Source of the DNA: Thermodesulfobacteriota bacterium
GTDB lineage: Bacteria; Desulfobacterota; Desulfobacteria; Desulfobacterales; C00003060
Length of the DNA stretch: 64,000 nt
NCBI GenBank assembly: GCA_034189385.1
Contig: JAXHVD010000004.1
Coordinates: 131,195-195,194, forward strand
Direction of reading: 5' to 3'
Shown piece after piece: positions 1-2,855 of this stretch. The notes under the pieces were generated by a model. The model ran no database searches. It saw only the letters and a list, made by a program, of their open reading frames with translations, and had not been told where the DNA came from. Positions within the stretch are counted from its first letter, which is position 1, and every line of letters begins with the position of its first letter. The position numbers and the translations under genes were made by a program.

Positions 1-65
1 AGGATCTTGAGTTCTTTTAGAAGGGCCTTGTCGATGGTCGTGTTGTACATCTTGCGGTCAGTCAT
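1..65 (-). CDS. Small ribbon-helix-helix-like DNA-binding protein, 5' part only (runs off window)
   Basis: ATG at 65 on the minus strand reads MTDRKMYNTTIDKALLKELKIL, a beta-ribbon then helix pattern typical of RHH regulators. Divergent from the recombinase. Not in the ORF track. Confidence 0.6.
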   Translation of the reverse strand, partial: MTDRKMYNTTIDKALLKELKI

Positions 66-2108
66 GATATACGGGTATCAGAAGCCGGTACATTTTTCAA
101 TAAATATAGAATTATCGGTATCTTTTTCTTGCTTTTTGTGTTATAGTTTTATAGTTGTCTATACAATCACACACTTCCAAACAGTACGATGAAAAAGAGT
201 TTTAAAAACAATAGGTTCCCGAGATTCCCGGTGTCCGTGAGGTCCGGGGCGCCTGTACTGGCGTGGAAGGTCTCGGGTTCTTTTTTGGGTAGTCTCAATT
301 AAGAGAGGGTCAGAAAATGAAAGCAGCCATCTATTGTCGAGTATCAACACCGACTCAGAAAGAGGCCGAAACCATAGAAGGCCAGAGGGTCGCATTGACA
401 AAATACGCGGAAGACCGGGGCTGGGAGATTGTGGACGTATATGAAGACGAGGGCCTTAGCGGCAGTTTCCTAGAAGGCCGCAGGGATTTTCTACGGCTGC
501 TTGAGGACATGGGAAAGGGAGAGTTTGAAATCCTTCTGGTGGCCGAACACAGCCGTATCACCCGCTCTGACGACCCGATGGAAGGCGCTCTAATACTGAA
601 GACTCTATTGGACAACGACATTAAGGTGGCCTCTCCTGGGGCTGGCCTGGAGTCTGCTGATACCTTTGAAGGTCGCCTCATGTTCACGTTAAAAAGCATG
701 TTCGCCGCAAAAGAAAAGACCGACATTCTTGAACGCTTCAAGAGAGGCAAAGCGAAGTTTCTTGAAAAGGGCATCTACCCCAACGCGAGAGTTTGTTATG
801 GCCTACAAAAGGTGGTTCAACGGGGTAAAAACGGCAAAGTCATAAAGCACGAGATCGTCATCAACGAGGAAGAAGCGGCGGTCTTGCGGTCGGTCTATGA
901 TTGGATAGTCAAGGACGGTCAGACCATCAACTGGGCGGCTGCCGAGTTGAACCGCCTAGGCATAAGGACAGCGCAAGGTAAAAGGTGGAGTTCTCCCAGG
1001 CTTTCTGAGATTCTGCGGAACGAGGCTTTATGTGGCACAATGTATTGTAACAGGTACGTGTGGAAGACCACCGGCATCAGCCCCAAAGGGAAACAACAGC
1101 AGAAGCTTTTAAAGGTCAGGCCCAAGACGGACCCAGATGTAATTCATATTTATGTCCCAGCCATATTCAGCAAAGACGAGTTCAAGCTGCTGCGGGATAC
1201 GGTCAAGAACAACCGCCGCCGTGCACGGTCAAAGAAGGACAGCCCATTCTTGCTTACTGACAAGTTGAAATGCGGCATCTGCGGTGCTCGTCTAGTCGGT
1301 GCTTATGGTGGAAGTCCAGGTCAGAAAAAAGTGAACTATTATATATGCCACAACAGAAAGAAGTCGCCCCAGAGGCGAGAGCCAGACGAGAAGCCGTGCT
1401 GGCTGCCCATGGTAAACATGTTATCCCTTGACCAGAAGGTCGAACGTGATGTCTTGATTGACCTGTTTATGCACCCAAAGCGGACCCTGAAGAGCTGGTC
1501 GTCGGTGGATCAGAATAAGCGCCGCCGGGCCAAGCAGTTGAGGGATAAGGTGGCCCAGGCCGAGGAACGTATTGAAAAGTTGAGGAAAAAGAAAAAGGCA
1601 CTGCTTCAGAAGGCCATAAGCGGTGTTGCATGGGAGGGGTGGAATGAGGCCGATATCAAAGAGGCCGTTGAAGGTGAGAGGGTAAAGCTGGACCAGCAGA
1701 TCACCCTAGAAACCGAACGCAGGGACACGGCCAAAAAAGAGGCTGAAGCCTTAGAGGGAATGATTGAGAGGGCAAAAAAGGTTCGCAATGGGTCCAAGGA
1801 ATTGGAAGAGGTGGCGGCTAGGCTTGGTGAGAAGATCTTGAATATGACCGTTGCTGAAAAACGGACCTTGTTGGACTATATCATCCCATCCGGCCATTAT
1901 ATCACCGTGGAGCCTATTTTAGATGACCGGGAAATCTGGTACGACAAACCCAAAGGGGTGGCCCGGACACTTAAGTGTGAGTGGATGGTGATGCCTGTCA
2001 CGGTGCCTGATTTTAACTTAAAGGGGCTGGTTGCTGCCTTGCGGGAATACGATAAAACCGGAGTGATCCCAAAGGCTTCTGTATATTTAATGCAAAATAA
2101 GCATTTAA
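1..2108. mobile_element. Right end of an integrative element or prophage; junction near 2105-2110
   Basis: The integrase sits directly against a 5'-truncated host gene whose frame starts abruptly after TAA 2106-2108. Confidence 0.7.
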
Positions 2109-2131
2109 AGCGCCATTCAGGCAACCAATGA
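317..2131 (+). CDS. Large serine recombinase (integrase)
   Basis: N-terminal IYCRVST catalytic motif, resolvase and recombinase domains, Zn ribbon (CGICG...YYIC...C), coiled coil; 604 aa. Confidence 0.95.
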   Translation: MKAAIYCRVSTPTQKEAETIEGQRVALTKYAEDRGWEIVDVYEDEGLSGSFLEGRRDFLRLLEDMGKGEFEILLVAEHSRITRSDDPMEGALILKTLLDNDIKVASPGAGLESADTFEGRLMFTLKSMFAAKEKTDILERFKRGKAKFLEKGIYPNARVCYGLQKVVQRGKNGKVIKHEIVINEEEAAVLRSVYDWIVKDGQTINWAAAELNRLGIRTAQGKRWSSPRLSEILRNEALCGTMYCNRYVWKTTGISPKGKQQQKLLKVRPKTDPDVIHIYVPAIFSKDEFKLLRDTVKNNRRRARSKKDSPFLLTDKLKCGICGARLVGAYGGSPGQKKVNYYICHNRKKSPQRREPDEKPCWLPMVNMLSLDQKVERDVLIDLFMHPKRTLKSWSSVDQNKRRRAKQLRDKVAQAEERIEKLRKKKKALLQKAISGVAWEGWNEADIKEAVEGERVKLDQQITLETERRDTAKKEAEALEGMIERAKKVRNGSKELEEVAARLGEKILNMTVAEKRTLLDYIIPSGHYITVEPILDDREIWYDKPKGVARTLKCEWMVMPVTVPDFNLKGLVAALREYDKTGVIPKASVYLMQNKHLKRHSGNQ

Positions 2132-2855
2132 GGGGCTCGACGGTTTTCTTACAAAACCCTTTGACAACAGGGAATTGCGCAACAAGATTCAAGACATTGT
2201 CATAAAAAAGCGACTGAAGCAATTTGTCTCTAATCAAGTCTATGAGGAAATTAGAAACGATCCTGCTGTCATGAACCCCAAAAAACAGAAAGTGACCATA
2301 CTGTTTAGTGATATTAGAGGATTCACCGAGATGTCTTGGAAAGTCCCACCTGAAAAGATTGCAGAATTTCTAAATGACCACTACTTTACACCCTTGGGAG
2401 AAATCGCTTATCTGTACAACGGCACTGTAGATAAACACATTGGCGACTGTATCATGGTGATATACGGATCGCCTGTCTCCCATGAGGACGATATTGTCAG
2501 GGCTATTGAATCGGCAATTCATATGCAGAAGACTTGTAAGGCCATCAGCAAAGGATTGAAAAAAACAAATGGATTCAGGCTCCGTGTTGGAATCGGTATC
2601 TGTGCGGGCGAGGTAGTAAGTGGTGTCTTTGGCTCCTTGAGGAAAAGAGAATACACGGCCTTCGGGCTGCCGGTCAATATTGCCGCTCGTTTAGAAAAAA
2701 TGGCAAAGGGCGGGGAGATATTGGTCAGTGGTACGACCTACAAAGAGGTGTCCCACCACTTTGCGGCCGAGAGGATGACGCCGGCCATCCCCGTCAAGGG
2801 CTTGGATGAGCCTATTCCCATCTATCGGATTCTGGGCCCTAAGGCTTCAACTTGA
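2109..2855 (+). pseudogene. 3' part of a receiver-domain / class III adenylate cyclase gene, split by the element
   Basis: The frame upstream of TTG 2175 reads SAIQATNEGLDGFLTKPFDNRELR (end of a REC domain with KP motif). Cyclase motifs FSDIRGFT, DKHIGD and VNIAARLE are intact. Confidence 0.8.

Follow-up and report, generated by a model that had tools for sequence, protein, structure and literature searches.

A gene that encodes a receiver domain fused to an adenylate cyclase is split at codon 89 by a 15,176-bp element carrying a large serine integrase, and elements with unrelated cargo interrupt the same codon elsewhere. The elements are of a known kind, the target is new and recurrently used, and its mapping is precise: both junctions, the in-frame join of the two gene halves, the crossover position shared by three genomes and the empty sites of close relatives are read directly from the DNA. 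As to what the insertions do, we think it probable that site-specific selfish elements inactivate a dispensable cAMP gene, in a manner that is reversible in principle. We favour this reading because the insertions occur sporadically, split alleles stand beside intact sisters, and mobility-type genes have been kept (a terminase-like gene in the source genome, G000, and a replication initiator in a second genome, G395). Weighing against it, both complete cases (G000 and G395) are undamaged, only 3/16 integrases of the clade can be tied to the cyclase gene, the attP arms of G000 are no more symmetrical than chance, and repeated hits on one protein-coding site without replacement sequence are the pattern that, according to PMC10111431, is usually understandable as regulated gene integrity.

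The integrase gene and its junction with the host

The window is the whole stretch of 64,000 nucleotides that was analysed (G000:C34:131195-195194, where C34 is the contig), and positions given without a contig refer to it. The element (G000:C34:118129-133304) lies mostly upstream; its right end, set by the join positions and with no strand assigned, covers 1..2110. At 317..2131 on the plus strand is a large serine integrase of 604 aa with Resolvase, Recombinase and Zn-ribbon domains. Its catalytic serine is present, and S10 is invariant among the integrases compared. The original prediction had this gene crossing the junction and taking about seven codons from the host, and it does so: host DNA supplies the last six whole codons (RHSGNQ) and the TGA stop, in addition to a shared junction codon. 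The attR site spans 2079..2140 (plus strand), with the element arm reaching to 2108, the core AG at 2109-2110 and the host arm starting at 2111. The bases AAAG at 2107-2110 are common to both junctions, and the core dinucleotide lies within them. The att site adjoins the integrase gene, inside its last codons, and has a short core and no long duplication. No tRNA that could serve as a target is found on contig C34, and Rfam gives no match in the element region of either G000 or G395.

On the excised circle the integrase would have a different tail and would lengthen, in silico, from 604 to 612 aa. Beyond the last conserved residue the tails are unrelated between elements (RHSGNQ; GDSCYK...; an antisense peptide), and the other integrases of the clade end at or before the junction point or carry unrelated tails. 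A functional role for the tail change has been rejected for now, since the tails are neither conserved nor related. The attP of G000 is no more symmetrical about its core than chance would have it (12/32 against 11.7 when shuffled), and that of G395 forms a strong inverted repeat (22/32 against 11.3 when shuffled). Compared with each other, the two attP sites match at 33 of 64 positions, against 24.0 (p 0.006).

The two halves of the host gene

The 3' part of the host gene (2109..2855, plus strand) encodes the receiver from codon 89 onwards, a linker and a class III adenylate cyclase domain (PF00211). By general receiver topology, we take the receiver remainder after codon 89 to be alpha4-beta5-alpha5. 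Upstream, the cyclase frame extends to 2109 as SAIQATNEGLDGFLTKPFD, where TAA at 2106-2108 closes it, and the cyclase motifs FSDIRGF, DKHIGD and EYTAFGLPVNIAARL are undamaged; the earlier description of this frame and of its motifs was accurate. The missing 5' receiver half, which had been expected at the other end of the element, is found 15,176 bp upstream, outside the window and directly after dusB (G000:C34:117863-118132; 89 aa, ending TGYATMER-stop, PF00072). The attL core AG is at G000:C34:118127-118128, also outside the window.

When C34:117863-118128 is joined to the 3' half at AG, with 15,176 bp removed, the result is 336 aa with one terminal stop. The halves had been predicted to join in frame, and the product is indeed an uninterrupted receiver-cyclase that is colinear with intact orthologues, with no gap at the junction in the alignment to the 28 loci, of 29 orthologous ones, that cover it. 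In silico, excision would both rebuild this protein and alter the C-terminus of the integrase, much as had been proposed. We also considered orthologues that natively start near 2175, a possibility ruled out by the 27/28 genus orthologues that are open frames of 338-408 aa (the remaining one is cut by the contig start). The receiver (PF00072) and the class III cyclase (PF00211) are both recognized, and the catalytic and ATP-specifying motifs are present. For the catalytic domain of an intact orthologue, PDB 3r5g (CyaB) and PDB 2w01 are among the best solved matches (E ~1e-33). The host gene resembles these class III cyclases in having the metal-binding and ATP-specifying motifs, whose roles we take to be the generally accepted ones, and differs from them in that the predicted cyclase is fused to an N-terminal receiver.

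In the integrated state, read-through from the integrase might give a receiver-less, unregulated cyclase and leave cAMP synthesis on, an outcome that we regard as very unlikely. The 3' half is co-oriented with the integrase, no terminator-like site was found on the plus strand between the two, and the catalytic domain is undamaged; class III cyclase domains on their own are often active. However, the starts proposed in the original prediction, TTG 2175 and ATG 2271, are without a well-spaced ribosome-binding site (a purine run 1-2 nt upstream of the former and none for the latter), which speaks against that part of it, and ATG 2128, overlapping the integrase stop, is out of frame with the cyclase. 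In G395 the alternative cyclase starts differ and are made by that element's own end, so a receiver-less cyclase would be no conserved design. Moreover, an inverted insertion (P0002, below) would allow no read-through, and the cyclase half is not found in a third genome, G036 (assembly 89% complete). A regulated cyclase is likely not produced while the element is integrated.

The same codon in other genomes

When 401 genomes of the order were searched with a profile, one close integrase besides that of G000 came up, namely in G395, which belongs to another family. This integrase is 42% identical to its counterpart in G000 and immediately precedes a cyclase half whose cut is at the same place. 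The receiver half is 8,663 bp upstream, again after dusB, and the join gives 335 aa. The G395 element carries a RepA-like initiator, a tyrosine recombinase and HTH and RHH genes, and by tblastn it has no cargo in common with the G000 element except recombinases. The G395 receiver half is matched identically by P0027, a protein with the source label Desulfobacteraceae. G395 also holds, about 18 kb upstream of this second element, an open reading frame of 10,356 aa or more (G395:C1:660501-691569, L285/L287, minus strand) that by eye looks like a giant surface protein.

In G036, from the genus of G000, the same left junction with core AG is present, and after a further 1.9 kb the element end recurs as a second copy of 66 bp; neither the cyclase half nor an integrase is found in this assembly (89% complete). 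By eye, the 1.9 kb (G036:C107, L356:3512-5469) holds HU, an rpsU-like ORF and a dksA/traR-like remnant. The 66-bp copy is 95% identical and marks a tandem or nested mini-element without integrase. The crossover position is identical in the three genomes, and the cores are the first two bases of codon 89: AG in G000 and G036, GC in G395.

A further integrase, P0002, is 41-42% identical to that of G000 and 62% to that of G395. Its tail fits the antisense of a receiver half, read from the same crossover, at 34 of 35 residues (shuffles: mean 5.9, maximum 15), from which we infer that its element was inserted in the inverse orientation. Searches with P0002-P0004 in genome, metagenome and viral collections returned distant integrases only, or no match.

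These observations suggest how the insertions may arise. The element's own serine integrase likely placed the 15.2-kb element at codon 89, which this group of integrases likely uses as a dedicated landing site, likely inactivating the gene. Following established serine-integrase chemistry, an AT-rich attP at the end of the integrase gene would recombine with a conserved attB in the receiver-coding sequence, and the two-base core would have to agree with positions 1 and 2 of host codon 89. An inverted insertion, as for P0002, would follow if the core were reversed or palindromic; recombination at a two-base core would thus account for both the host-matched cores and the occurrence of either orientation. 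Since attP brings no replacement sequence, insertion would leave a receiver stub lacking the C-terminal third, plus a cyclase half with no good start. Excision, which would be precise, would repair the gene, and it likely serves the spread of the element and not a host programme. The site is likely favoured by being conserved across the order in a dispensable gene, and the insertions would be mostly recent and independent, with some of them decaying.

The full profile search delimits a distinct integrase clade (12 clusters at E < 1e-135, followed by a gap). Among the 252 integrase loci examined, those of G000 and G395 alone adjoin the cyclase gene. Only 3 of the 16 clade integrases examined have tails traceable to it, and the remaining ones stop no later than the junction or have scores typical of unrelated tails. 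In a quick tree the G000 integrase and the G395/P0002 pair fall on different deep branches, so the cyclase target may be ancestral to the clade. A more distant serine integrase, at L033 (G026:C230), lies beside a tyrosine recombinase and has a different target: it ends near the 3' end of what by appearance is a ribosomal protein L3-like gene.

That integrases on different deep branches have the site in common would also suit manipulation in the element's own interest. Here, silencing the cyclase would lower cAMP functions that are harmful to the element or bear on host exposure, with DNA uptake and surface receptors as the proposed examples. In the part of PMC10083194 covered here, competence genes are enriched among integrase targets; in the portion of the target data covered, receiver domains account for 13/1069 targets and 3/908 random genes (FDR 0.076), and the G000 host has 10 matches to cNMP-binding domains. 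Yet no link between the cyclase and competence or receptors was found, a second cyclase remains in the cell, and reuse of the site is explicable by sequence conservation alone. We judge this explanation quite unlikely.

How common the splits are

A protein search restricted to 48-156 aa gave 45 receiver relatives, nine of which break right after codon 89 (P0016-P0021, P0024, P0027 and P0030, two of them being G036 and G395). The same break was present in 12 of the 19 further cluster members that were read. Counting G000, there are eight types of tail among the split receivers; the 97-aa forms end at the very codon at which the G395 element end stops. Shared lengths suggest that the split proteins known without DNA end at a stop and not at a contig edge.

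In a tree of 65 receiver sequences (88 columns, with many forks unresolved), split forms stand beside intact sisters. For example, P0016 has the same sequence as the beginning of P0061, which continues into the cyclase. One branch consists of seven split forms only; full-length members lay outside the search, so the branch supports no claim of fixation. In the intact sequences nearest to P0016, P0019 and P0020 the core position reads TC, which makes a third core likely.

Among genomes, splits are sporadic. The gene is split in 2 and intact in 27 of the 29 genomes of the G000 genus that have it (37 searched), and split in 1 of 11 in the G395 family (26 genomes searched). Two further families give 0/40 (52 searched) and 0/15 (17 searched). 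An order-wide draw matched 97 of 401 genomes, with frames of 92-98 aa in G000 and G395 alone. Six other short receiver frames were set aside because they end with their contig, carry a late frameshift or encode a receiver that stands alone. One nearly complete genome has a receiver alone (L318, G189:C2:3254-3580; 143-aa frame), with no cyclase within the 4 kb examined.

Breaks at other positions were also seen. The receiver halves P0022, P0023, P0039, P0062, P0063, P0077 and P0078 diverge at codon 82 and have the common tails SDHALLSL, SDYALLSL or AI; this set is possibly another insertion site or a recurrent deletion. P0031, P0033 and P0037 (also P0026 and P0035) break around codon 101-105; in three of them LLK stands at one and the same position, and no such split was found in 40 genomes of the nearest family.

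Condition of the split gene

Over 141 conserved columns, the joined G000 gene has 1 change and the joined G395 gene 2, against a median of 2 in 47 intact genes. Compared with its nearest intact relative, the G395 gene has a dN/dS of 0.12; for G000 the pairwise dS to its relatives is saturated and dN/dS is uninformative. Among the split receiver halves, 18 of 21 are unchanged at all 28 invariant columns, and over 45 conserved columns the set does no worse than intact genes. The exceptions are P0021 (G036) and P0030, each with a single change at an invariant column (Y84, within the att arm), and P0024, with four, including the conserved threonine. Excision in silico restores an undamaged frame in G000 and G395 and does not do so in P0021/G036 or P0024. 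Most insertions thus look recent or still usable, and some look dead. So few changes at invariant columns fit recent insertion, and would fit continued use through excision equally well.

The receiver-cyclase gene itself looks dispensable, because it is not found in 2 of the 15 genus genomes that are at least 90% complete and because G000 encodes a second class III cyclase.

Empty sites, excision and its possible regulation

Six DNA runs (X1-X6) were studied as assembled contigs; the shares of X5 and X6 are small. In X1 a single contig of 15,799 bp spans both junctions with 0 differences, and misassembly is thereby ruled out. As X1 is possibly the source sample, it tests the assembly and adds no independent strain. 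A second X1 contig skips the element and differs at 23 of 277 bases, which assigns it to another strain. In X2, exactly 15,176 bp are missing from a 620-bp contig that has 7 differences, and most bins along the element have little cover or none, pointing to a near-identical (99%) strain without the element. Scattered pieces of the element occur at low depth in X3 and X4, and X4 has two empty-site contigs that differ at 6 of 110 bases and so come from other strains. Neither a circle joint nor a same-strain empty site is present in the X1-X6 contigs, which drop rare forms, so the missing circle joint is no proof of absence. The search for attB/attP junctions that the original prediction had called for thus gave no excision product.

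The central proposal of that prediction was a possible excision-controlled cAMP switch. As a case of regulated gene integrity, such a switch would have a signal act through a directionality factor to excise the element and yield the full receiver-cyclase in a subpopulation or at a given stage. The precise in-frame join in both complete cases, the undamaged halves, an attP without replacement sequence and the repeated hits on one codon of a signalling gene all speak for such a switch. On the other hand, most relatives keep an intact gene, the cargo is unrelated, both orientations occur and mobility genes are kept. Some split alleles decay (P0021/G036 and P0024), and no directionality factor was identified among the scanned ORFs. 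The lack of a circle joint or same-strain empty site in the contigs adds to this, weakly, given that rare forms are dropped. With no excision product in the contigs, and with the element absent from the near-identical strain and from 27 of the 29 genus genomes that have the gene, the switch has found no support so far, and we consider it unlikely.

A wider version, in which an old integrase clade has specialised on one cyclase codon across the order and excises on cue, seems improbable to us as well. If true, cAMP synthesis would be switched on by DNA rearrangement with a core matched to the host codon, and the cyclase would be the first second-messenger enzyme under excision control found in the searches made. 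Either outcome would be instructive: should excision be regulated, DNA rearrangement would control cAMP in these uncultured anaerobes; should it not be, as under the selfish inactivation that we favour, a perfect-looking 'switch' would arise from plain site-specific parasitism.

Relation to known elements

Several serine-recombinase elements restore host genes by excision, such as skin in sigK and SPbeta in spsM. Long-term residence (fixation in a lineage or loss of mobility genes) is typical of skin and is not required for comK-type prophages. It is not what we see here: the element is absent from a 99%-identical strain, sisters are intact and mobility genes are kept. The likeness to regulated gene integrity lies in the interrupted coding sequence, the attP without replacement and an excision that restores the frame, whereas the elements described here are sporadic, their cargo is unrelated and some split alleles are decaying. 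The sequence features of a candidate, as worded in the part of PMC10111431 covered here, do appear in this gene, and that part of the source holds such targeting to be usually understandable as regulated gene integrity. The functional side of a regulated switch has been demonstrated for phi10403S in comK, according to the portion of PMC10052878 covered. Interruption alone is common, given that 43.4% of islands lie within coding sequences in the part of PMC12424338 covered.

Closer parallels are the elements of Durrant et al. (PMC10083194), for which the comparison draws on part of the paper. There, conserved genes (comM/magnesium chelatase and a prolyl isomerase) are disrupted by serine-integrase elements, and the likeness extends to divergent integrases at one conserved coding position, a short core, an att site beside the integrase and an empty site in close relatives. 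The same part of that source covers the core modularity of serine integrases. In contrast to the cases described there, the target here is a receiver-adenylate cyclase, the natural core varies with the host codon (AG, GC) and both orientations occur. The word 'cyclase' has 0 occurrences in the text of PMC10083194 and its 8 supplementary files, and the main text of PMC13626063 has no match for cyclase or receiver.

By its domains, the position of its att site and its empty sites, the element is a large serine integrase integrative element. Our literature searches returned no report of a receiver-adenylate cyclase as a target; the tables of Mageeney 2020, reportedly the main catalogue of such cases, lie outside their scope and may bear on this. 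The finding adds a signalling enzyme to the genes repeatedly targeted by serine-integrase elements. It also provides two attP/attB pairs, fully mapped, that use different natural cores at the same position, and in addition an inverted case; together these offer a ready test of how integrases track changes in the host codon, as well as new integrase-site pairs.

Cargo of the element

The element has 48.4% GC, against 51.8% for the genome. Besides the integrase, a 51-aa ribbon-helix-helix gene of the element on the minus strand (C34:131104-131259) reaches into the window, with its 5' part at 1..65, and ends outside. The cargo beyond the window comprises a topoisomerase-like protein (342 aa), a Cro-like HTH protein, a terminase large subunit-like protein (576 aa; L001:6828-8558, E 3.7e-10), a small serine resolvase/invertase (244 aa), an IF-1 homologue scoring above the TIGR00008 cut-off (L001:11522-11758; G000:C34:127522-127758) and a PEP-CTERM gene (L001:13928-15050) just upstream of window position 1, together with ORFs that match no family. 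The scan of 19 element ORFs detected no capsid, portal or tail family, which leaves the terminase-like gene in a 15-kb element with none of these genes detected beside it. None of the scanned ORFs was identified as a directionality factor.

Phage satellites (PICI-like) and integrative mobilizable elements resemble both elements in size (9-15 kb), in having an integrase and small HTH/RHH regulators, and in combining a packaging-like or replication gene with no detected capsid or tail family. Unlike PICIs, however, the G000 element has a terminase-like gene with no primase or AlpA detected (Pfam, PHROGs), and that of G395 has a RepA-like initiator and a tyrosine recombinase with no terminase match. 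We do not class the elements as PICI-type satellites: HTH genes are present and structural genes were not detected, but there is no AlpA or primase match.

The PEP-CTERM gene and the region upstream of it resemble several host loci at 68-89% identity, which explains a multi-copy signal in the DNA-run contigs. This gene is likely cargo captured from a host-type gene family.
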